From IMG/VR virus record IMGVR_UViG_3300031628_000018, positions 1-33,189 of that record: DNA of 33,189 bases; one strand, written 5' to 3'. The DNA is from a virus (taxonomy: Duplodnaviria; Caudoviricetes). The position numbers were made by a program, and so were the translations under genes. Of the stretch, positions 7,390 to 22,724 are shown one piece after another (position 1 is the first letter of the stretch; every line of letters begins with the position of its first letter). The notes below the pieces were generated by a model. The model was not told the origin of the DNA, searched no databases, and was given only the letters and a program-made list of their open reading frames with translations.

Positions 7390-9003
7390 TTACACAATAT
7401 AAGAAGATATGCGATCAGTATCTTTAACATCAACGTCCACATGCCACATGTTGTCATCCTTACCAGAACTAACTATGGGAGCTTCCTCTGAAGGCTTCCA
7501 AGGCATAAGGGAGCTTAACATAGATATTGTATCTAGGAAGTCATCATTCTTGCTGCGCATACCCCCCACTGCAATTAAACTAAGTTCATTTATCGCTTCT
7601 ACCATTGGCGCTTCAGCTTTACGTTCTATAGGAAAAAATACTTTTCTTGCTTTAAACCAAGGGACTACAGTATTGAATCGTACAAGTTTATTTGTACTAG
7701 GTCGCATACCAGCTTTACCTTGATTACTTTCACTTGCTAGAGGGAAATAAATGTTCCGTTCTAGCATTTGTGATTGAATCCATTGAATGAAGCCTCCCTG
7801 TTGCCCACTTACCTCAATACCTACAGATTGGGGTTTGTATTCTTGGGCTAACCGGAATAAATCATCAATGTTCTTATCCATTAACTGGCGTTTACAGATA
7901 CCATCTACCCATAACCAATCGCCTACATTATTATACGCCCATACACTAATAACTGAGAAATCTGCCTTTTCCTTCTCTGAAGTGGCGAAATCAGTAGTAA
8001 TATAGAAGTTAAACCTACCCTTGTTCCGTAAGACAGCATCTATCTTGTACCATCCAATATCCCCATCCTGTATCATCCGGTCCTCTTCACTCATAATACG
8101 CAACATTAATTCTTGATTGAATGTATCAATCTTATTATTCTTCATTGCCGTATCATATTTCTTCTTAACGAAATCATAAGTGAATCGATCAGGCCAACTC
8201 CCCCTAAATTCTTCCTCAGTACAAGGAAATGATTCACATACCGGGAATACATTAACTGCCCAAGCACCAGACTCAACTGCCTTATACAGTGGGTCTTTGG
8301 CATTAAAGGGTGTGCCAGACCATATGATCATGTTCCTAGTAGGATGTAATGCATAAGTAACAGCCTTATAGACTGTATCTTCTACTGAAGCAATGACTGT
8401 TGCTGATCTAGCGTCTTCATCACTGATTAGATCATCTAGTACCGCCAACTGTGGGCGCATACCCATCTCTTTAGCACCACGAACACCTGTTTTTGCTCCG
8501 TATCCACGGACAATAAAAACATTACCATCGGCATTCTTAAATTCCCATCGGATATCTGTAAACCGCACAGTCGGTATATATTGTTTTAGGAAATCTGAAT
8601 TTTCCCAGCGGAACTCTAAGTTCTTCCGCATATTTTTTATACCATTCTCAATGGAATCTGATACGTATAAAGCTAGATCTACTTTACCAAAACCAGGCAA
8701 GGTCCCATAAACACCTAGGTATAAGAATAAATACTCACCCATCACTGTAGTTTTACTTATACCACGGTGACATAGATTAATAATCTGGGTACCCCCGTTG
8801 GTAATAGTATCCAACATTCTATAATGGACTACCGGGGTTTGGTGTTCTTCGCCGCGCTCGCCATTAACCAGTTTAATAAAGGTTACGAACTCTAATGCAA
8901 ATTCACTAGGCACATAGTCCTTATCGTCCTCATAACTAGTGCTATTAAGGTATTCCTCAACTTTCTTGGGTGAAAATATTTCTTTAGTCGCTGTTTGGCT
9001 CAT
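7390..9003 (-). CDS. terL: Terminase large subunit, N4 gp68 family
   Basis: HRGISKTT Walker A-like, LAVLDDL Walker B, SGTPFN coupling motif, and nuclease acidic motifs TTDFA and DDFLD. Confidence 0.95.
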   Translation of the reverse strand: MSQTATKEIFSPKKVEEYLNSTSYEDDKDYVPSEFALEFVTFIKLVNGERGEEHQTPVVHYRMLDTITNGGTQIINLCHRGISKTTVMGEYLFLYLGVYGTLPGFGKVDLALYVSDSIENGIKNMRKNLEFRWENSDFLKQYIPTVRFTDIRWEFKNADGNVFIVRGYGAKTGVRGAKEMGMRPQLAVLDDLISDEDARSATVIASVEDTVYKAVTYALHPTRNMIIWSGTPFNAKDPLYKAVESGAWAVNVFPVCESFPCTEEEFRGSWPDRFTYDFVKKKYDTAMKNNKIDTFNQELMLRIMSEEDRMIQDGDIGWYKIDAVLRNKGRFNFYITTDFATSEKEKADFSVISVWAYNNVGDWLWVDGICKRQLMDKNIDDLFRLAQEYKPQSVGIEVSGQQGGFIQWIQSQMLERNIYFPLASESNQGKAGMRPSTNKLVRFNTVVPWFKARKVFFPIERKAEAPMVEAINELSLIAVGGMRSKNDDFLDTISMLSSLMPWKPSEEAPIVSSGKDDNMWHVDVDVKDTDRISSYIV

Positions 9004-9956
9004 GCAATATTAGTTTCTAATCGTTTAGCTAACCTTTTTGACCTATTACCCACCTGACCCCACCATTTTGAATCTTTCATTTCTGTGATAGCTTTATTCA
9101 TATCACCAGCTTCAAAACCTTCTTTCATCTTCTTAAATTTAGATAATCCGCCCCTACCTAGATTAAACGCCATATTTACGAGAACTTCCCTGGATGTATC
9201 ATTTAAATTTACACCCTTGTAAAGTGTATCCACATCATTATTAGCTGTTTTAAAATCTGCTTTGAACCATTTATCCACTTGTTCCTGTGGAACAGCCATC
9301 CCCCCTTCGTATTTCCCTGATGCTAATTCTGCCTTAGTAAGTTTATGACCTATGCCTGCAGTTAAATACCCCTCAGTATCTGGGTAAACAACATGGTCCC
9401 CTTGCTTATTTCGTTTTGTTCCTTCATCCGTCTGTAGTTGTTGTACTGCAGGTGAGAATGTTTGTGGTTGCTGTGGATTCTCAACAAGATCTTGATTTTC
9501 ACTCATACTACGAGAAGCTGCAGTAGCAGCGTCTGGGCTATCATACATGCCTAAATGTTCACCTGTTTTTCTATAGTAATCTTTTGCTTCTTCCTCTCCC
9601 ATATCTTCTCCAGTTTCTGGATGAACCGTTGGTATCAGTGTTTCTACTCCATCTATATTGTACGATGTCCCTAAGATGGTTTTTTGTTGCCCATTTCCAG
9701 CATCAAATCGAGTTCTATTTGCTAGATTAATATTTCCTGGTGCTAGCTCTCCGTTTTCATATTCAGGTGTGTATTGTTGTAGGGTCTCTACCATATTACT
9801 ATTATAGTTTGGTACAACTGCTTGCTGTGCTTGGTAAGCATTTCCATAATCTATACTAGCCGGAGCTATTGGTTGTTCTGGGCCCTCATTGAAATATTGT
9901 TTAAAGCTATCCCAAGCATTACCAGCTGAGTTCCTAAGATCGTCGTAAAGTGCCAT
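9000..9956 (-). CDS. Multi-domain protein with C-terminal T4-lysozyme-like (GH24) muramidase
   Basis: DEG...YPDTEGYLTAGIGHKLT, LVNMAFNLG and SKWWGQVGNRSKRL parallel T4 lysozyme DEG..YKDTEGYYTIGIGHLLT, LINMVFQMG and SRWYNQTPNRAKRV. The N-terminal ~170 aa are Q/N/P-rich plus a GNINL..R...LIPTV...TGEHLG domain. Confidence 0.85.
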   Translation of the reverse strand: MALYDDLRNSAGNAWDSFKQYFNEGPEQPIAPASIDYGNAYQAQQAVVPNYNSNMVETLQQYTPEYENGELAPGNINLANRTRFDAGNGQQKTILGTSYNIDGVETLIPTVHPETGEDMGEEEAKDYYRKTGEHLGMYDSPDAATAASRSMSENQDLVENPQQPQTFSPAVQQLQTDEGTKRNKQGDHVVYPDTEGYLTAGIGHKLTKAELASGKYEGGMAVPQEQVDKWFKADFKTANNDVDTLYKGVNLNDTSREVLVNMAFNLGRGGLSKFKKMKEGFEAGDMNKAITEMKDSKWWGQVGNRSKRLAKRLETNIA

Positions 9957-10384
9957 TAGTTAGATATTCCTACATTAGTCACACTACTAAGGGCGGGATC
10001 GCCATAGTATTTTTGTAAAAGCGCATAAATCTTAGCTCTAGCGCTTTCTTCTGGTTGTTTCATCATAGGAGGTGCCTCTTGCGGTTGTAAATCTGTTACC
10101 TCACCTCCAGGACCATATGCACTCATTGAGCCCAGAAAATCAGGTTGTTTTACCTCTCCATGCTTTGCAAGTCGATCATAAACTGTATTCCCGTCTTCTC
10201 CTCGATTTCTACCACTTGCTAAGAACTGAGCCCAAGAATCCCCACCCGCCGCAGGCGCTTGAGATGTAGGAAAGGGTGTTGGTTGTGTTCTCACTACTGG
10301 GGTGGCAGAAGCGAAAGGGGCAGTGGCCCCTTGAGCTCTTGATTTTGGATATATATTATTAAATGTATTAACTGCATTATACAT
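9956..10384 (-). CDS. Hypothetical P/A/Q-rich protein
   Basis: 142-aa ORF coupled by a 1-nt overlap to the lysozyme gene. Low complexity. Confidence 0.6.
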   Translation of the reverse strand: MYNAVNTFNNIYPKSRAQGATAPFASATPVVRTQPTPFPTSQAPAAGGDSWAQFLASGRNRGEDGNTVYDRLAKHGEVKQPDFLGSMSAYGPGGEVTDLQPQEAPPMMKQPEESARAKIYALLQKYYGDPALSSVTNVGISN

Positions 10385-10387
10385 ATA

Positions 10388-10582
10388 CTATGTTTCCCAA
10401 TCGCGCTTATCGCGCTCTATATCATCTAATTCTTGTACTGTATGCTGTTTGCCTGCTGAAAACCGCAAGCTTTTGACTATCTTATCCTTACCAACTTTGC
10501 GCCAGTTAGATATATGCCATAGTAAAGTATTCCTGCGACCACTACCAGAACCGTGAAGGAGCTTCTTTTTAGCCATTGACAC
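10388..10582 (-). CDS. Hypothetical small basic protein
   Basis: 64 aa, packed 3 nt from the next gene, AAGGTGA SD-like upstream. Confidence 0.5.
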   Translation of the reverse strand: MSMAKKKLLHGSGSGRRNTLLWHISNWRKVGKDKIVKSLRFSAGKQHTVQELDDIERDKRDWET

Positions 10583-10637
10583 ATTATTTCACCTTTTAGA
10601 ATAAAATCTAGCTACAATATGAGCATTCTACCACCAA

Positions 10638-11342
10638 TTAACTAATTATCTCCGCATCATCAACCTCAGTTGGCACTACTTCTAGCTTCGACCCAGCAAT
10701 AATACCGGCTGTAGTCTGCCCCGCCTTCATTAATAATCTCTGATTGGCTACTAATTCCAGCGTAGCCGTCCTAAGTACATTGATTGAACTGTCTTCTTTA
10801 ATACCAATATCAAGCTCAACTTTCTTAACTTCAGGCATTTTAAGCTGTGTTAGCAGTGAATTAGCTGCATCAGTCCTAACCTTCTCGCTTTTAGCAGTTA
10901 CCATCAGCTCCGCCTGTACATTTAGGGCCTTTTGGTACATATCCTGATTTAGCACATAACTAGGTATCAATGTCTGCTCATATATAAGATTGACCAATTT
11001 ACTCTTGTTATATGCAGTCACATAACTAGCTATATCTTTAGACGCTACCCCTTGTGTAGCAAATCGTAATATTTTTTCTGGGAACGTCTTACTATACCCA
11101 TCAATATGAGAACAGCCCATGAGCTTATGGCTCACGTATTTCACCGCAGAGATATACTCGCGCATCTTAAACCTGCCATCCTTCATAACCCCTGCGTAGC
11201 TAATCAGATTCTCCCTATAAGCCTCATACAGCTCTGGTTCAGTCAATGTCTTGTTGATTTGATCTATCAAAGCTTGGTTAACTGATTTTCTTACCTTATC
11301 TGGTAATGCATGCTTGAATTGCTCAACTGTTAATGCCGTCAT
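10638..11342 (-). CDS. N4 gp69-like protein, putative terminase small subunit
   Basis: Y.SAVKYVSHKLMG, DIASYVTAYNKSKLVNLI.EQ and SEKVRTDAANSLLT.LK motifs. Upstream of TerL. Confidence 0.85.
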   Translation of the reverse strand: MTALTVEQFKHALPDKVRKSVNQALIDQINKTLTEPELYEAYRENLISYAGVMKDGRFKMREYISAVKYVSHKLMGCSHIDGYSKTFPEKILRFATQGVASKDIASYVTAYNKSKLVNLIYEQTLIPSYVLNQDMYQKALNVQAELMVTAKSEKVRTDAANSLLTQLKMPEVKKVELDIGIKEDSSINVLRTATLELVANQRLLMKAGQTTAGIIAGSKLEVVPTEVDDAEIIS

Positions 11343-11627
11343 GTAAGACCCTTTTGGGTTAGTGTATCGGGAGAGTATAGATTAAATCCAGAGGGTTAGG
11401 GGAAAAATTATTTTTTTGGGTTTTGAGAAATTTATAATTTGGGTACGATTGCAGGGATTGAACTGTCAAGGACTAGAAGCAAATACTCCCCCCCTCTATA
11501 TCTGCAAATTAGGTTATGGGCACGACTCACCACCCAAAGGCACACCTCAGGTCAAAACCGAAGGCACACTAAGGTCAACTACCACAGTAGTGATTGCTGA
11601 ACACGACTCACGCGCTACGCGGGAGAA

Positions 11628-11641
11628 ACAGGCAAGCCTGT
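11628..11641 (+). promoter_or_regulatory. Candidate hairpin promoter (copy 1) ACAGGC-AA-GCCTGT
   Basis: Perfect inverted repeat ~50 nt upstream of the first + strand gene. A covarying second copy lies at 13003. Confidence 0.5.
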
Positions 11642-11690
11642 ACGGGCTGGAACATTCACCCGAATGCTTCCCAATTAATTGGAGACTAAT

Positions 11691-11882
11691 ATGAGTAACG
11701 CTTTCGGTATGGTTTGGAAGTTTCTTTACCACCTCTTCAGCGGTGCAAACAAATGCGCCGTAGCTTTCGAGAACATTGCTACCGTAGGTGAGATTAGTTC
11801 AGTAATCTACCTAAACGAGCAGAAGCACAACCTCGCTAAGCTTGAGAAGGTGTCTAAGAAAGAGCTCGATGCTATGAAATAG
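11691..11882 (+). CDS. Small early protein (paralog A)
   Basis: GGAG SD and ATG at 11691, 63 aa. Shares S..Y..EQ..NLA.LEK with the next gene. Confidence 0.75.
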   Translation: MSNAFGMVWKFLYHLFSGANKCAVAFENIATVGEISSVIYLNEQKHNLAKLEKVSKKELDAMK

Positions 11883-11944
11883 TAGCACGACTCATACCTG
11901 TGCACCGCTCGGTGTGCAGGTTGTTAATCAACTTCGGAGGATGT

Positions 11945-12172
11945 ATGTACAAAGACATTTGTGCTTTCTTTAAGCTTTTAAAAGCAGCTTTTGTAGCAAC
12001 TAATACGCTTGCTACTATGCATGATTGCGGCTATCGTGGTACGCCTGTGTATTCTCAGGTGTATGTTGATGAGCAAAGGAAAAACCTTGCTCGACTCGAG
12101 AAACAGGCGAGTACACAACTCACAGAGCGTAACTACATGCCTGTGGAACCTGTTGATTACATTAGAAGATAA
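11945..12172 (+). CDS. Small early protein (paralog B)
   Basis: GGAGG SD and ATG at 11945, 75 aa. SQVYVDEQRKNLARLEK aligns with SVIYLNEQKHNLAKLEK. Confidence 0.7.
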   Translation: MYKDICAFFKLLKAAFVATNTLATMHDCGYRGTPVYSQVYVDEQRKNLARLEKQASTQLTERNYMPVEPVDYIRR

Positions 12173-12241
12173 ATCCACGACTCATCTATCCCACACTGGG
12201 GTAGGTGGGTCCAACCCTTTAACCCAAAGCCACACATAAGG

Positions 12242-12316
12242 TTCAAGATCAAAAGCAACGTCAACATCAACATCAAAGGCAGAATCAAAGGCAAAAGCGA
12301 TAAGGTCAAAAGCAAG
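12242..12316 (+). repeat. Degenerate hexamer tract (NNCAAN)
   Basis: TTCAAG ATCAAA AGCAAC GTCAAC ATCAAC ATCAAA GGCAGA ATCAAA GGCAAA AGCGAT AAG GTCAAA AGCAAG. Confidence 0.7.
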
Positions 12317-12456
12317 TTCTAGGACAGTCACGACTCATTTACTGAGTAGGGTATCGGACAGTCAGTAGCTAGGTTTACTGATTACCTGTTATTCCTACTT
12401 ACTTAAGTACTTTACTTAGATAGTCCAAATACGATATCACTACGGTATCTTTAGTC

Positions 12457-12753
12457 CTATACCTTCCTATTCTTTCCATACACTTCTGGAGAACTTCTTC
12501 GCCATCCTTTATTCTTCTTCTCACCTACTACTTTGAGGTTACTTAACTTAGTATCACCACCCTTATCCAATAACCTAACATGGTGTACGTTCTTACCATC
12601 ACCCTTGCTAGCCTTGCCTGCCTTCACAGCTATTGCTCTAGCTTGGTTCTGTTTAACCCTACTAGCTATCCTATCAGGATGTGCGTTGTAGATTGCTTTG
12701 TTACGTCTGGCTTTATCATACGCTGCTTGGGATTGTCCTTCCTTCTTAGGCAT
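12457..12753 (-). CDS. Small basic HNH-family nuclease
   Basis: KGDGKNVHH...L.KGG....SNL.VV....N is a beta-beta-alpha-Me pattern. AAGGA SD upstream. Confidence 0.7.
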   Translation of the reverse strand: MPKKEGQSQAAYDKARRNKAIYNAHPDRIASRVKQNQARAIAVKAGKASKGDGKNVHHVRLLDKGGDTKLSNLKVVGEKKNKGWRRSSPEVYGKNRKV

Positions 12754-12886
12754 AGTGTTTCCTTATATATATAAGAATACTAACTTCCAAACGCACGCCT
12801 GTTCCCGACTCGCGTCGGAAACGCTGAGCGTTTGTAAGCATTGGGTGGGGTTGCTTTTGATTATAGTACTTGCCTCGGTGTAAAAA

Positions 12887-12916
12887 GTTATATCACATAC
12901 ATAATATCATTGTCAA
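12887..12916 (-). promoter_or_regulatory. Host sigma70-type promoter, leftward
   Basis: Minus strand reads TTGACA-18 nt-TATAAC with an extended -10 TG, ~130 nt upstream of the HNH start. Confidence 0.7.
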
Positions 12917-13002
12917 GTGAAAGGTCAAAATCTCGGGAAGTGCTCCCTCTCGATATCCTTCATCTCTTATCGTCTTATTTTCGTATTAGGTTGGAAACAA
13001 TC

Positions 13003-13016
13003 ACGGGCAAGCCCGT
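13003..13016 (+). promoter_or_regulatory. Candidate hairpin promoter (copy 2) ACGGGC-AA-GCCCGT
   Basis: Perfect inverted repeat ~55 nt upstream of the ATG at 13071. Differs from copy 1 by one compensatory base pair. Confidence 0.5.
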
Positions 13017-13070
13017 ATTTACGGCGATATTCTCAGCCAAATAACGTACTATTTATTTAGGAGATTTAAA

Positions 13071-13337
13071 ATGATTGACTTTAAAGATTCAGACAAAACA
13101 GTAGATTCCAACTCAACTTGGAAGAAAGCTGATGGTTTTATTAACATTACTTTAGAAGGAACTGATGGTTCTTATCCTAAGTTAGGCGCAATTGGGTTGC
13201 ATTTGAACAAAGCCCAAGACAAACGCCTAATTGAGTGGCTTTCAAAAGATCCAGAAGGTAACAGTGCAAAATTAGCTCAGAGACTTAGAGTTAATTATCG
13301 TTCAGCTCAACCAGCAGCTGAATTCAAATTAGATTAA
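13071..13337 (+). CDS. Conserved N4-like early protein, possible ssDNA-binding transcription cofactor
   Basis: AGGAG SD. The WK.A.GFINI and KLGAI.L pattern is recalled from N4-like early genes preceding RNAP II. Function is inferred only. Confidence 0.55.
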   Translation: MIDFKDSDKTVDSNSTWKKADGFINITLEGTDGSYPKLGAIGLHLNKAQDKRLIEWLSKDPEGNSAKLAQRLRVNYRSAQPAAEFKLD

Positions 13338-13345
13338 AGTCCCAC

Positions 13346-13386
13346 ATAGCCTTTACTGACACATAGTCAGTAAGGGTTATTTTATT
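13346..13386 (+). terminator. Intrinsic terminator
   Basis: ATAGCCTTTACTGAC-ACATA-GTCAGTAAGGGTTAT followed by TTTATT. Confidence 0.75.
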
Positions 13387-13434
13387 AGATAGATAGTCAG
13401 AAAGTCCCTTACTACTACTATAGGAGTTCAGGTC

Positions 13435-14343
13435 ATGGATACAAATCAGCAGATTCTAGCCCAAGAAATAATCGAAGGTACCTATAACCGTAGACATATT
13501 GATACTAAGATCCGGAAGGTTATAGAAAGTCATCCACTAATACAATCTAAAGTTCTTCAAGGTATTGATTTAATTAATAAATACTTACAAGGAACATATT
13601 ATGATAGTAAAATGAAGAGAGTCGCTCAGTTAAAACTGATGGATATTCGTGAGTTAGTTATAGATATCTTCATAGGTATCACATACTTTCAAGCTCCTGA
13701 ATTATTCACTTCAGCATCTGCACAAATTGCAATGCGGTTGAAGTTTAGTAACCAAGTAGAAGCTATTGCAGCTACAGCTGACTTACTAGCAGTACTCTGT
13801 AATACAGATGCCTTTGATATCACTAAGGAATCTAAAGGTGCTAGCCTTAAAGTAGTATCACGTATACCTATAGAAGATAGTTTAGTATCTTTCATTAAGG
13901 ACAGTGAGTTCTTACCACCTATGGTATGTGCACCTTTACCACTAACTCATAACTTTAGTAGTGGCTACCTTACTCATAACGACAGTCTAGTACTAGGTAC
14001 AGGTAATCATCATGATGGAGACTTGTGTCTATCAGTACTTAACACTATGGGACAAGTAGCTATGAAACTAGACACTGAGTTCTTACTTGAGATGGAGGAG
14101 ACACCTAACTATAAGTTAGATACCGCTGATAAGATTAGTCACTGGCAAGACTTCAAACAACAGAGTAGCTACTTTTATATACTTATGCTCCAACAGGGCA
14201 ACCGTATATATTTCAATCATAAAGTCGATAAGAGAGGGCGTATCTATGCTAGTGGCTACCATATCAATCCTATGGGCACTAGTTATAAGAAAGCTATGCT
14301 CGAATTTGCTAACGAAGAACTAACAGAGGGAGTACCGCTATGA
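13435..14343 (+). CDS. N4-like RNA polymerase II subunit 1 (gp15 family)
   Basis: LPPMVC.P, SGYLT, and the T7-like motif HKVDKRGRIYASGYHINPMG...KKA (DxRGR). Confidence 0.92.
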   Translation: MDTNQQILAQEIIEGTYNRRHIDTKIRKVIESHPLIQSKVLQGIDLINKYLQGTYYDSKMKRVAQLKLMDIRELVIDIFIGITYFQAPELFTSASAQIAMRLKFSNQVEAIAATADLLAVLCNTDAFDITKESKGASLKVVSRIPIEDSLVSFIKDSEFLPPMVCAPLPLTHNFSSGYLTHNDSLVLGTGNHHDGDLCLSVLNTMGQVAMKLDTEFLLEMEETPNYKLDTADKISHWQDFKQQSSYFYILMLQQGNRIYFNHKVDKRGRIYASGYHINPMGTSYKKAMLEFANEELTEGVPL

Positions 14344-14633
14344 AAGTAATACTAGAATTTGAAAGTGAAGAAGAGTTTAGGGAATACAAATACAAATTAG
14401 CAGGTAAAAGAAAATTTGATCCAGGGAGTTTTCATATAAATAGCCTTGAGATTAGTAATGCTATAAAAAGAAGGCTTGTGGCCGCAAATAAGAATTTGGT
14501 CCGAGATATCAGCAGTATGACAAATATAGAGTTATATAAATTACCGGGCATTAGTTGGCAATCAGTTGCTGAGATAGTTGCAGCCCAACTTTTACTCACT
14601 AATACATCACTTAAAATAACCTTTACTGACTAA
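14340..14633 (+). CDS. Protein with RNA polymerase alpha-CTD-like helix-hairpin-helix domain
   Basis: INSLEISNAIKRRLVAANKNLVRDISSMTNIELYKLPGISWQSVAEI aligns by eye to alpha-CTD [47 protein letters not shown]. ATGA overlap with RNAP subunit 1. Confidence 0.7.
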   Translation: MKVILEFESEEEFREYKYKLAGKRKFDPGSFHINSLEISNAIKRRLVAANKNLVRDISSMTNIELYKLPGISWQSVAEIVAAQLLLTNTSLKITFTD

Positions 14634-14647
14634 TTTAAGGAAACCAA

Positions 14648-15895
14648 ATGATTAACTATTCAGGATGGCAATGGCTACTCATAGATGTAGCAAACCAGTT
14701 CGGACTTGACAAGCTTACCTTTGAAGACCGTATTAAATGGACTGAAGATAACCTTGAGAAGTTAGAATCCTTAGACTCTGAAGTGTCTATAAAGAAGAGA
14801 GCGTTGTATATAAAAGCTCGTCTTGCAGTTCGTAAAGCACTAAATGGTTTTCCTACAGGGCACATGGTAGGTGTAGATGGTACATGTAGTGGCATCCAGA
14901 TAATGTCAGCTCTAACAGGCTGCGTAGAGGGTGCTAAAGCTACTAATCTGACTGATCCTACCACTCGATATGATGCATATACAGAAGTTACAGAAGCTAT
15001 GTCTAAGACTTTAGGTAGTTCTATCTCAGTATCTCGAGATGATGCTAAAAGCGCCACAATGTGTAGTTTCTACGGCTCAAAAGCTGAGCCTAAGAAAATC
15101 TTTGGTGAAGGATCTCCTCAATTAGAGGCCTTTTACAAAGCTACTACTAAGATTGCACCGGGTGCATGGGAACTATTACAAGACCTCCTATCTAGCTGGC
15201 AGCCTTATACTTTAAGCCATAACTGGAAATTACCTGATGGATTTGATGCACATGTAAAAGTCATGACTAAACGTACTGTACGTATAGAAGTGGATGAACT
15301 TCCAGGACATCCTACTTTTAGTTATGAACTTTATGATAATGCAGGTGAAAAGAAAGGCTTAAGTAATGTAGCTAATGTAGTGCACTCCATTGACGGATTT
15401 ATCGTAAGGGAAATGCATCGTCGCTGTAACTATGACCGTAAAGTTATAGATCAAGCAGCTCTGACTGTTGAAATTGAACTAGTTGCACGGAATATAGGCA
15501 AGGTTTACGATGATAAATGTTTTGATTCAAACATTGAATATTATCGTGATCAATACCATTACAGCGGTATGCCTAGTATAGTAATTGCTCCGTATATAGA
15601 TACAACTACTGTTGCATATCTAAGTACAAAGCATCTTGTGGCTCTATCCAAGATAATGAATGGGATGCTTCAGTATCGTCCATTCGATTTAGTTACTGTA
15701 CATGATGAATTCCGATCCCTTGCAAATAATGTTAATTGGGTTAGATGGCAATACAAAGAAATTCTGGCACAGATTGCAGATAGTGTATTACTTGATGACC
15801 TAATAAGTCAATTACATCAATCAGTTGGTACATTCCGAAAATTGTCGCCTAACTTAGGTGATCAAATAAGGAATTCTAACTATGCTTTAGTGTAA
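14648..15895 (+). CDS. N4-like RNA polymerase II subunit 2 (gp16 family)
   Basis: Motif A DGTCSGIQ, motif B R...K...M...YGS, ANVVHSIDG and motif C VHDEF. Confidence 0.95.
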   Translation: MINYSGWQWLLIDVANQFGLDKLTFEDRIKWTEDNLEKLESLDSEVSIKKRALYIKARLAVRKALNGFPTGHMVGVDGTCSGIQIMSALTGCVEGAKATNLTDPTTRYDAYTEVTEAMSKTLGSSISVSRDDAKSATMCSFYGSKAEPKKIFGEGSPQLEAFYKATTKIAPGAWELLQDLLSSWQPYTLSHNWKLPDGFDAHVKVMTKRTVRIEVDELPGHPTFSYELYDNAGEKKGLSNVANVVHSIDGFIVREMHRRCNYDRKVIDQAALTVEIELVARNIGKVYDDKCFDSNIEYYRDQYHYSGMPSIVIAPYIDTTTVAYLSTKHLVALSKIMNGMLQYRPFDLVTVHDEFRSLANNVNWVRWQYKEILAQIADSVLLDDLISQLHQSVGTFRKLSPNLGDQIRNSNYALV

Positions 15896-15939
15896 CAGCC
15901 GGACTCCGTGCGGTTTTTTGATTTAGTGATACTTTTATG

Positions 15940-15975
15940 TGGACAGACCCGAAAGGGTTTGTCCATTTTCTTTTT
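15940..15975 (+). terminator. Intrinsic terminator after RNAP II genes
   Basis: TGGACAGACCC-GAAA-GGGTTTGTCCA followed by TTTTCTTTTT. Confidence 0.85.
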
Positions 15976-15990
15976 ATATCGGAGATAATT

Positions 15991-16377
15991 ATGGGCTTAG
16001 ACCAGTATGCGTATTCCATTTCTAATCGAGTTGCCGGAACTAAACAAGTAGATATAGAAATGCCACCTAGAACTAAGAAAAAAGAACTTGCATTTTGGAG
16101 AAAATTCAACCATTTACATGGTTGGATGCAATCTCTATATTACGACAAGAAAGGTCTAGATAATCAGTTTAACTGTGCGTCTGTTCGCTTAATGCCTGCA
16201 GATTTAGATGCTCTTGAGAAGGCTTTAATAGCCAATACATTACAGCATACACCGGGGTTCTTTTTCGGTAGTGCTGAGATATATCCTGAAGATGTTAAGA
16301 ACACTTTAGAGTTTATTACAGAAGCTCGAGTTGCCATTAAAGAAGGGCGTGCAGTAATCTATGATAGTTGGTGGTAA
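15991..16377 (+). CDS. Conserved phage hypothetical protein (MGLDQY...WRK.N.LHGWM...YDSWW type)
   Basis: GGAG SD before the ATG at 15991. The longer 15937 start would lie inside the terminator. Confidence 0.75.
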   Translation: MGLDQYAYSISNRVAGTKQVDIEMPPRTKKKELAFWRKFNHLHGWMQSLYYDKKGLDNQFNCASVRLMPADLDALEKALIANTLQHTPGFFFGSAEIYPEDVKNTLEFITEARVAIKEGRAVIYDSWW

Positions 16378-16463
16378 TCCAGGACTTATAAAAATACTCA
16401 ACCCGATATACTATTTTCATCAGAAAGTCATTTTTTGACTATATACAGCCTGCAAGGAGACAA

Positions 16464-16682
16464 ATGGCAAATAACAATAAACAATTACAACTGTTCCCCG
16501 AAATAGAACCGACAGTCGCACCACTATTTCCAACCATGGGTAGCTTACAGGATGTAATTAATTTAGCTGAAAGTAGCTTACCCATAACAAATAGAAATGG
16601 TATTTATGCGCTATTAATGACATATCACAATACTTTATTAACAGAAGTTCAACAGCCTTCGAGAGAATATTATGAAGATTAA
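16464..16682 (+). CDS. Hypothetical protein, conserved upstream of N4-like AAA ATPase
   Basis: AAGGAG SD, LLMTYHNTLL motif. Confidence 0.65.
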   Translation: MANNNKQLQLFPEIEPTVAPLFPTMGSLQDVINLAESSLPITNRNGIYALLMTYHNTLLTEVQQPSREYYED

Positions 16683-17685
16683 TATAGAACAGGCTTTACG
16701 CGTTATACCTACATGCATTAAATCTAGACTGGTTCCTATGTTGGTTGGTAGCCCGGGGATTGGTAAATCACATATTGCCCACCAAATAGCATTAGAAAAT
16801 AATCTAAAGGTTATTGATCTACGTTTAGCGCAATGTGACCCTTGTGATATTTTAGGTTTTCCTAACATAGTTGGAGATAAAGCTGGTTACATCCCGATGG
16901 AAACATTCCCCATAGAGGGTGATGAGCTTCCTGAAGGGCATTCAGGTTGGCTACTCTTCTTAGATGAATTCAATGCAGCTCCACCAGCTGTTCAAAGTGC
17001 AAGCTATAAACTTGTATTAGATCGTATGGTTGGCATGCACAATTTACATAGTAGAGTAGCCATCATGTGTGCAGGTAATCTAGATACTGATGGTGCTATT
17101 GTTCAAGAAATGAGCACAGCACTGCAGTCACGGCTTATTCACTTTGAATTAACAGCAGATCCAACCACTTGGTTGAACTGGGCTATGAATAATGAAATTG
17201 ATCATCGAATTACAGATTACATTAAGTTTAAACCAGGCGATTTGTATACATTTACCCCTGACCACACAGATAAGACCTATGCCTGCCCACGTACTTGGGA
17301 ATTTGTTAGTCGTTTACTACCTGATATGACTGAAGATGACCCTGATATGCTTCCAATACTATCTGGGACTCTTTCAGAGGGCGTAGCTCGTGAGTTTGTT
17401 GTATTTATGAAAATCTACGCTAGCTTACCTAAGCTTTCCGAGATTCAAAAGGACCCTCAGACAGTCTTCATTCCAAAAGAGCCTAGTATCTTATTCGCAT
17501 TAACTGGCTCACTTAGCCATAACATGAAAGCAGATACTGCTGATCAAATAATGTTGTATGTCTCCCGACTACCAGTTGAATTTCAAGTAGTGACATTACG
17601 AGAGACTGTAAGGCGCAACAAAGAAATGTTAACTCACCCAGCTATACAAAAATGGGTTAATGAATCCTCAGCTAAACTATTTTAA
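16672..17685 (+). CDS. MoxR-like AAA+ ATPase (N4 gp24 family)
   Basis: Walker A GSPGIGKS, Walker B LLFLDEFN, AGN, STALQSR and CPRTWE. Confidence 0.9.
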   Translation: MKINIEQALRVIPTCIKSRLVPMLVGSPGIGKSHIAHQIALENNLKVIDLRLAQCDPCDILGFPNIVGDKAGYIPMETFPIEGDELPEGHSGWLLFLDEFNAAPPAVQSASYKLVLDRMVGMHNLHSRVAIMCAGNLDTDGAIVQEMSTALQSRLIHFELTADPTTWLNWAMNNEIDHRITDYIKFKPGDLYTFTPDHTDKTYACPRTWEFVSRLLPDMTEDDPDMLPILSGTLSEGVAREFVVFMKIYASLPKLSEIQKDPQTVFIPKEPSILFALTGSLSHNMKADTADQIMLYVSRLPVEFQVVTLRETVRRNKEMLTHPAIQKWVNESSAKLF

Positions 17686-17694
17686 GGAAGACTA

Positions 17695-18189
17695 ATGGGT
17701 GATCGTTGTATTGCAGATCTAGTAATACTAGAACCACATAAAAAGAAGGTAATTGAAATAATTAATAAATATGCAGATTTTAGTTTAGACCGTCGCCCCA
17801 TTACAGAAAAAATGTCTTCTAGAGAAGATGGTATTTCTCTTATATGTTTCTATTTTGATGATGTAAATTATGGACACTTAGACTTCTTACAAGACCTCCC
17901 AAATAAAGGTATACCTTATGATTATAGTTGGGGACAAGGTGATGAGTATGACCCAGGGAATGGGTATTGTCGGTATCTTGAAGATGGGACTTTATTCGAG
18001 AGAGTAATCTCAAGTGAAGATGTTAACCCACCTATGTCCTCACTTATAGAGCTTATTGATAAACCATTCGCATTAGCCGAGTATGTCAAAAATCATGCTA
18101 ACTGGATGAAGATTCCTTCATGGAAGAACCAAGATACATATGCAGATAAGTTTCGTACTTTACAACTAATAACTGAAAATAAAGGCTAA
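17695..18189 (+). CDS. Hypothetical protein
   Basis: 164-aa ORF with AAGGAAG SD between the AAA and VWA genes. Confidence 0.65.
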   Translation: MGDRCIADLVILEPHKKKVIEIINKYADFSLDRRPITEKMSSREDGISLICFYFDDVNYGHLDFLQDLPNKGIPYDYSWGQGDEYDPGNGYCRYLEDGTLFERVISSEDVNPPMSSLIELIDKPFALAEYVKNHANWMKIPSWKNQDTYADKFRTLQLITENKG

Positions 18190-22226: not shown

Positions 22227-22724
22227 ATGCACAGTCTTACACAAGAAGAATTAAAAAGAATAATGGAATTTGACCATGTTACTGGTATTTTCACTTGGTC
22301 AGGTGCTGCTAAAAATAAAATGCGAGCTGGAAGTAGAGCTGGGACTAGTAATACTACTGGCTATATTTGTATTATGATATATGGCAAGCACTATCGAGCA
22401 CACCGATTAGCCTGGTTATGGGAATACGGAGAGTTTCCCGCAAAGGAAACAGACCATATAAACGGAATCCGTAATGATAACCGTATAGCTAACCTTAGAC
22501 AGGCAACTCACCATGAGAATATGCAGAATCAACGAAAGATGCATAAGAATAACTGCTCAGGGTATCTCGGAGTTTATCCTTCAGGCTATATGAAGAAACC
22601 TTGGAGAGTTACCATAAGTGTAGACAATAAAACAAAACATGTAGGGCATTTTGTAGGTAAAGAGGAAGCACGCGATGCTTATATCGAGGCTAAAAGGATG
22701 TATCATAAATTCTGCACCATATAG
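22227..22724 (+). CDS. Free-standing HNH homing endonuclease with AP2-like C-terminal domain
   Basis: YRAHRLAW...DHINGIRNDNRIANLR.A...N, then SGYLGV...W...I...HVGHF...EEA..AY. Confidence 0.9.
   Translation: MHSLTQEELKRIMEFDHVTGIFTWSGAAKNKMRAGSRAGTSNTTGYICIMIYGKHYRAHRLAWLWEYGEFPAKETDHINGIRNDNRIANLRQATHHENMQNQRKMHKNNCSGYLGVYPSGYMKKPWRVTISVDNKTKHVGHFVGKEEARDAYIEAKRMYHKFCTI

Follow-up and report, generated by a model that had tools for sequence, protein, structure and literature searches.

Between the two subunit genes of its T7-type RNA polymerase II (RNAP II), a marine N4-like phage carries an optional 308-bp cassette with a 97-aa open reading frame. Judged by profile and pairwise comparison, this ORF appears to be a diverged C-terminal domain of the alpha subunit of bacterial RNA polymerase (alpha-CTD), the likeness being weak but real. 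The cassette is present or absent in near-identical phages, and the polymerase genes are intact either way. It is very probably a dispensable, alpha-CTD-derived cassette and not a core subunit of the phage polymerase or a substitute for gp2.

Results

The RNAP II region

The window, which is the whole stretch of 33,189 nucleotides analysed here, is part of an N4-like (Schitoviridae-type) phage: N4-type families are matched by its portal, major head and terminase, by its DNA polymerase and helicase, and by both RNAP II subunits. Its relatives in culture are remote (RNAP2 identity no higher than about 47%). A 57%-identical RNAP2, the sole genome match among 185,579 species searched, lies inside a long bacterial contig of Xenophilus sp. 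Marseille-Q4582 (L096, 914 kb). Among the related IMG/VR records, four carry the label provirus, a state that is unusual among N4-like phages. The relevant features are:

13071..13337, + strand: Drc-like ssDNA-binding RNAP II cofactor (gp2 equivalent), 88 aa; phrog_6271 and pairwise match to LUZ7 gp14
13435..14343, + strand: RNAP II subunit 1 (RNAP1, N4 gp15-like), 302 aa; phrog_2166, E 4e-88
14287..14319, + strand: RNAP1 3′ segment resembling, in frame, the first 11 codons of the insert; sequence comparison
14326..14332, + strand: Shine-Dalgarno-like GAGGGAG inside RNAP1; precedes the insert ATG, and the RNAP2 ATG in the empty allele
14340..14647, + strand: optional cassette, 308 bp; absent from sister phage L003
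14340..14343 and 14648..14651, + strand: ATGA at the two cassette boundaries; sequence
14340..14633, + strand: alpha-CTD-like ORF (the insert), 97 aa; ORF calling and Pfam/RpoA profile likeness
14340..14402, + strand: leader, residues 1-21 (predicted helix 10-21); model and sequence comparison
14415..14615, + strand: alpha-CTD-like helix-hairpin-helix (HhH) domain, residues 26-92; alignment and predicted model
14637..14641, + strand: cassette-borne Shine-Dalgarno-like AAGGA serving RNAP2; sequence
14648..15895, + strand: RNAP II subunit 2 (RNAP2, N4 gp16-like), 415 aa; phrog_2051, E 7e-138, and N4 RNAP2 structure 6dt7, E 5e-60

The arrangement originally predicted for the insert, 97 codons with the ATG on the RNAP1 stop codon (ATGA) and 14 nt between its own stop codon and the RNAP2 ATG, is confirmed in the sequence, and both neighbours belong to N4-type RNAP II subunit families. 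Terminator-like hairpins at 13346-13380 and 15939-15966 (+) flank the RNAP1-insert-RNAP2 unit (three found, 1.5 expected); a search for sigma-70-like promoters gave five, none meaningful, where 11 were expected. Elsewhere in the window, a lysozyme-like gene (9003-9956, −) lies between the terminase and portal regions and a free-standing HNH-AP2 endonuclease gene (22227-22724, +) ahead of the DNA polymerase gene.

The cassette is present or absent in near-identical phages

Sister phage L003 encodes an RNAP1 99.7% and an RNAP2 99.0% identical to those of the window and has no insert; its RNAP1 stop codon overlaps the RNAP2 start codon, and both polymerase genes are whole without the cassette. 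The two phages differ by exactly 308 bp between the two ATGA motifs, the only indel across 9000-18078 (8.8 kb aligned). The insert is found in one of 50 related records, and that record represents the same phage.

Metagenomic runs point to both forms in nature. Of 22 listed runs, none of them an RNA run, 20, all marine metagenomes, contain at least half of the words of 13435-15895; seven (X1, X6, X7, X9, X13, X19 and X20) were examined at the junction. In X13, a 90-base contig spans the empty junction with 48 and 38 letters on its sides (depth 13.4), and a further contig has 304 extra letters (depth 16.8), whose identity as the insert is deduced from their length. Empty and filled junctions thus occur in one sample, with the filled form identified by length. 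Insert letters are present in X1, X6 and X19, and in X20 a contig is 304 letters longer at the junction. X9 contains no real part of the window and is uninformative. Most of the insert is without cover in X7, where the flanks are covered, and this was not taken as evidence.

A third junction form is indicated in X7 at position 14364 (depth 2.8): loose ends of 30 letters, read by hand, give it a start that resembles that of the insert in about 10 of the first 13 residues and then diverges. This start had no match in viral contigs.

The ten L003 differences clustered in RNAP2 codons 3-48 might have marked a conversion tract linked with the cassette, a reading that was rejected: X13 shows only window-type letters there despite both junction forms, and RNAP2 is mosaic across the cluster. 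More generally, 54 of 415 RNAP2 residues vary, in blocks, among 13 full-length cluster members.

With these data, the claim that the insert is a third subunit of RNAP II is not supported as far as an essential part is concerned, because a near-identical sister phage has no gene there. For phage LUZ7, too, expression of ORF20 and ORF22, which encode the two subunits, yielded RNAP II with ORF21 skipped (PMC7145618).

Nor is substitution for gp2 supported, since a gene for the gp2 equivalent already lies upstream. The ORF at 13071-13337 matches phrog_6271 (E 3e-7), whose label 'toxin' is that given by RefSeq to LUZ7 gp14, and is 30% identical to LUZ7 gp14 over 46 aa (pairwise E 2e-5). LUZ7 gp14 is Drc, an ssDNA-binding cofactor of RNAP II, according to PMC7145618. 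The assignment rests on the PHROG and pairwise matches; a PDB sequence search for a Drc structure found none. The Drc homologue is identical in the empty-allele phage and recurs in 15 more distant loci; L015 holds two copies. It matches the role of Drc and N4 gp2, and the insert shows no likeness to it and has no match in PHROGs.

The junction is a variable insertion site

In the description by Amgarten 2017 (PMC5418858), the number of spacer genes that N4-like phages have at the RNAP1-RNAP2 junction ranges from zero to eight. We examined 77 loci, which gave 69 complete junctions (not dereplicated), the other eight having no RNAP1 in the flank. A spacer of at least 100 bp with 0-9 ORFs is present at 59 of the 69 junctions, and the other 10 have less. 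The 142 spacer ORFs form 39 clusters, of which the two copies of the insert make up one of their own. The largest cluster comprises 66 paralogous, aromatic-rich ORFs of 70-90 aa, often in tandem (L004-L093), with a shared C-terminal Pro-x-Glu-Phe/Leu...Leu-Leu motif. When 7,738 six-frame segments of the junction loci were compared with an alpha-CTD profile, the insert alone stood out (E 0.019; next 0.28). The proposed survey between gp15 and gp16 homologues thus revealed spacers at most junctions and no other alpha-CTD among them.

As an unrelated gene between intact RNAP1 and RNAP2 genes, the insert qualifies as a 'G7C-type' RNAP spacer gene (Amgarten 2017, PMC5418858; LUZ7 gp21, PEV2 gp20-22). 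It shares with these their site, the overlap-coupled small genes and the variable number. It differs in having no relation to any of the other 140 spacer ORFs sampled, in not being an HNH nuclease, and in its presence or absence within one population. The original prediction would be refuted if the insert were one of many random inserts at a known variable site with no interactions; the first half of this holds, the site being known as variable and harbouring many unrelated inserts. Most likely, the insert lies between the polymerase genes because insertions are tolerated and well expressed there, not because of a partnership.

Likeness of the insert to alpha-CTDs

RNA_pol_A_CTD (PF03118) is the only Pfam family matched by the insert and by all 12 of its variants. 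The match spans residues 31-81 (E 4.7e-4; best among the variants 4.2e-4), and at 20.3 bits lies under the curated cut-off of 23.8 bits, so that the suggested Pfam search singled out the expected family at a score below its threshold. The NCBIfam RpoA model matches at E 0.002 over profile positions 241-305 of 320, with a chance-level OXA match at E 0.034. The only PDB sequence match at E ≤ 10 is the E. coli alpha-CTD (1coo; E 1.6), which alone is non-significant. The score against E. coli RpoA was reached by one of 5,000 shuffles, and an HMM built from RpoA-type rows alone gave 16.4 bits for the insert, whereas neither the reversed sequence nor any of 3,000 shuffles exceeded 9.0. By the Pfam result, the shuffles and the FDP motif, the insert is nearer to RNA_pol_A_CTD than to other HhH families, and the likeness is above chance. 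The alignment to RpoA covers residues 23-79, the FDP motif at the linker end included, and a weaker tail; the predicted alpha-CTD pattern is therefore borne out over more than the 47 aa or so first given. The hydrophobic core is mostly retained, with a change at one core position (I275>K). Identity to any RpoA fragment found is about 28%, and the N-terminal assembly domain of RpoA is absent from the 97 aa.

In a set of 1.84 billion representatives, the insert and four other sequences pass E 0.001: three are tandem alpha-CTD proteins, and the fourth is repetitive and has no matched stretch; outside its own cluster this set holds no homologue at E < 1e-5. tblastn against 50,697 phage records gave no match at E ≤ 1. 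A profile search of short proteins retrieved mostly RpoA fragments and no nearer relative among the best 120 of 7,351. Scanning viral contigs with an alpha-CTD alignment produced 104 pattern matches, none confirmed, the query for confirmation being the diverged insert itself.

AlphaFold reached a pLDDT of 47 with the 12 near-identical variants, and of 87-93, for residues 31-80 only, with a 64-row alpha-CTD-rich alignment; the latter is circular, since the alignment holds alpha-CTDs. That model found RpoA CTDs first (Z 10.7, rmsd 1.7 over 64), followed by RAD51-family N-terminal HhH domains (Z 9.7), and its best Foldseek match had E 7.7e-3. We read the model as compatible with an alpha-CTD fold and nothing beyond that.

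Surfaces kept and lost

The alpha-CTD uses determinants known as 265, 261 and 287, the last being the patch for CRP and other activators, as described in PMC1874639. Alignment to E. coli RpoA confirms the predicted changes at DNA-contacting positions: A41 replaces R265, R44 replaces N268, and residues 70-75 (GISWQS) take the place of E. coli 294-299. For the comparison of whole faces, we assumed the residues of the DNA face beyond R265 and C269, those of the 287 face beyond V287, and the membership of D259 in the 261 face, the sigma region 4 determinant. With these lists, the insert is identical to E. coli at one of eight DNA-face positions, one of six on the 261 face and three of seven on the 287 face, plus V287>I. 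In the 287 patch, T61, I63, E64 and L65 align with T285, V287, E288 and L289; losses on this face are G315>K and R317>T. The equivalents of R265, G296 and K298 are all changed, positions that are R in 61/61, G in 61/61 and K in 56/61 RpoA-type rows. N294 has become the glycine of a canonical HhH hairpin. The only residue kept on the 261 face is E261, and 10 of 12 variants have Q there. Residues 27-97 have a pI of 8.4, compared with 5.1 for the E. coli alpha-CTD, so the domain has turned basic. Judged from the alignment, the UP-element DNA determinant (265) and the sigma region 4 determinant (261) have been lost.

Compared with the RpoA CTD (PF03118; E. coli 1coo, B. subtilis 1z3e_B), the insert has a like sequence pattern, running from the FDP motif at the linker end to the last of four helices, and a similar fold in the model built from the alpha-CTD-rich alignment. 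It differs in being free-standing, in its divergence and its altered, basic surface, and in having its own 21-residue leader. Over its first 33 nt, the insert agrees at 24 positions, in frame, with the RNAP1 3′ end lying 53 bp upstream; this is the best match in the window, for a length that was picked after the match had been seen. All 28 other gene starts score 19-23, and among 20,000 codon shuffles 11 attained 24. The likeness could stem from a duplication at the junction, be due to chance or serve to mimic a docking element.

Other alpha-CTDs in phages

The E. coli alpha-CTD matches 24 of 50,697 phage records; five of these are at least 90% identical and look like bacterial rpoA, and of three matching records examined two are true phage genes. 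Annotated phage alpha-CTD proteins outside RpoA are Goe8 c00050, Ruegeria phage V16 gene 23, Mycobacterium phage Mithril A0A5Q2WLP1, Rhodococcus phage Finch A0A2P1JY10, Erythrobacter phage L02 ORF 40 and a protein of the N4-like record G004. Of those seen, none lies between RNAP II genes or shows close sequence kinship to the insert. The Bacillus phage Goe8 protein (L027 1951-2583; 210 aa) is encoded near the genome end, at two places in the record, and has a C-terminal alpha-CTD with an intact DNA face. In V16 gene 23 (L028 2432-3298), an N-terminal alpha-CTD is fused to a domain named pyrophosphatase by RefSeq. The 160-aa G004 protein (L094 1471-1953, −) is encoded at another locus and has a C-terminal alpha-CTD in which R265 and the hairpin are retained. 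G004 and the present phage are the two of 50 related N4-like records with an alpha-CTD match (one of 34 near-complete ones). The three aligned domains, of Goe8, V16 and G004, keep R265, N294, G296 and S299, and six of the eight DNA-face residues in total, whereas the insert does not; their 287 faces keep two to four of seven. Of the four phage domains compared, the insert is the only one to combine E288 with a branched hydrophobic residue at 287. In BFVD, several small phage proteins bear the name alpha-CTD, and the ESM Atlas contains small clusters at 0.89-0.90, taken as a lead only.

Variation of the insert

Among 12 full-length variants, 8 of 97 sites of the insert vary, compared with 6 of 302 in nine RNAP1 variants (p 0.008). 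All 12 cluster members are full length without stop codon or frameshift, although membership of such a cluster favours intact genes. Codon usage of the insert (0.70) is within the range of its neighbours (0.65-0.78). Relative to L001, the insert has three non-synonymous and no synonymous differences, the flanking genes two and eight (p 0.035). All five DNA-level codon differences in the insert alter the residue; under neutrality, five changes with none synonymous would arise 30% of the time (p 0.30). Common variants occur at four sites, one of them tri-allelic, in every pairwise combination. Variable sites 35, 37 and 47 align with D259, E261 and K271, placing three of six variable domain sites on the 261 face (post hoc, p 0.004-0.04 depending on the residue list). 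The counts are tiny and fit relaxed as well as diversifying selection.

Discussion

Our tentative reading is that the insert is a free decoy for host partners of the alpha-CTD, acting through the partly kept 287 patch. An optional accessory gene derived from a bacterial RNA polymerase alpha-CTD, its DNA-reading face lost, would be expressed by translational coupling together with both RNAP II subunits early in infection. The product would fold as an alpha-CTD and compete with host RNA polymerase for activators. Host activator-dependent transcription would be damped in some hosts only, and we propose that both alleles persist for this reason. Loss of the DNA face, in a domain whose phage counterparts keep it, counts in favour of a decoy. 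On the other side, mimicry of a host surface would be expected, yet both the 287 and the 261 face are poorly conserved. As the 287 face is kept to a similar extent in other phage domains, much of its conservation in the insert is probably structural. The basic pI fits DNA binding equally well, and the all-replacement codons fit relaxed selection. The version of the decoy that titrates NusA through AR2 is weakened: NusA-AR2 is reported to bind the alpha-CTD via the UP-element site (Schweimer 2011), which is the lost face, and an AR2 contact is unlikely here. A second alpha-CTD contacts NusA-NTD in the sections of PMC5842316 and PMC6614797 that treat it.

The basic charge, the hairpin glycine gained at N294 and the RAD51-family N-terminal HhH domains as next-best folds (within 1 Z unit of the top) would suit a sequence-non-specific DNA-binding HhH protein, nucleoid-type or promoter-occluding, using basic helix 1 (K43 R44 R45) and the P-G-I-S hairpin. 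Since the DNA face is kept in other phage alpha-CTDs, DNA binding looks like the usual use of the domain in phages. RAD51-type hairpins also tolerate Ser at the second Gly. Against such a protein stand the R265, G296 and K298 equivalents, changed at (nearly) invariant positions, and a bulky Trp following the hairpin; we rate it only a little below the decoy.

Equally, the insert might be relaxed cargo, a gene that once had a function and has since been drifting, at a site that tolerates it, with fitness hardly affected. The excess of replacement changes and of variable sites agrees with drift, as do the isolation of the insert among spacer ORFs and in the databases and its absence from the sister phage. 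That all 12 variants are free of stop codons and frameshifts speaks against decay, and the free combination of common variants together with clustering on the 261 face would suit diversifying selection, tiny as the counts are. We rate cargo level with the DNA binder.

Far less plausible is an optional RNAP II adapter, in which the RNAP1-tail-like leader docks on RNAP2 and hangs the alpha-CTD on the phage polymerase, thereby recruiting host factors or regulating assembly. Translational coupling, the leader likeness and the similar start of the third allele speak for it; against it stand polymerase genes 99% identical with and without the insert, the lack of another alpha-CTD in 69 junctions and the presence of Drc. 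The leader likeness is as easily a relic of cassette origin or a common strand-helix start, and the tail of RNAP1 itself would presumably occupy the docking site in the heterodimer. That the leader is a true copy of the RNAP1 C-terminal tail, plugging a captured host alpha-CTD onto the T7-type polymerase so that this enzyme can contact NusA or activators of the host, and that the cargo following this leader can be exchanged, is in our view highly improbable.

Free alpha-CTDs are already annotated in many phage genomes. One phage paper mentions an alpha-CTD ORF, as an annotation only (PMC9127768), and the accessible portions of PMC4193335, PMC7824862 and PMC8515928 contain nothing on free phage alpha-CTDs. 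A functional study was not found in the literature searched, most subscription journals and supplements being outside its scope. Known phage strategies against the alpha subunit include its modification by T4 Alt and ModA and by phiKMV Rac, as covered in part of PMC7824862.

If the insert is cargo, it would be one more passenger at a known hotspot. The existence of phage copies with an intact and with a lost DNA face suggests two uses of the domain. If the decoy reading is true, the insert would stand for host takeover by polymerase mimicry rather than by modification, and near-identical phages with and without the insert in one sample offer a natural control.
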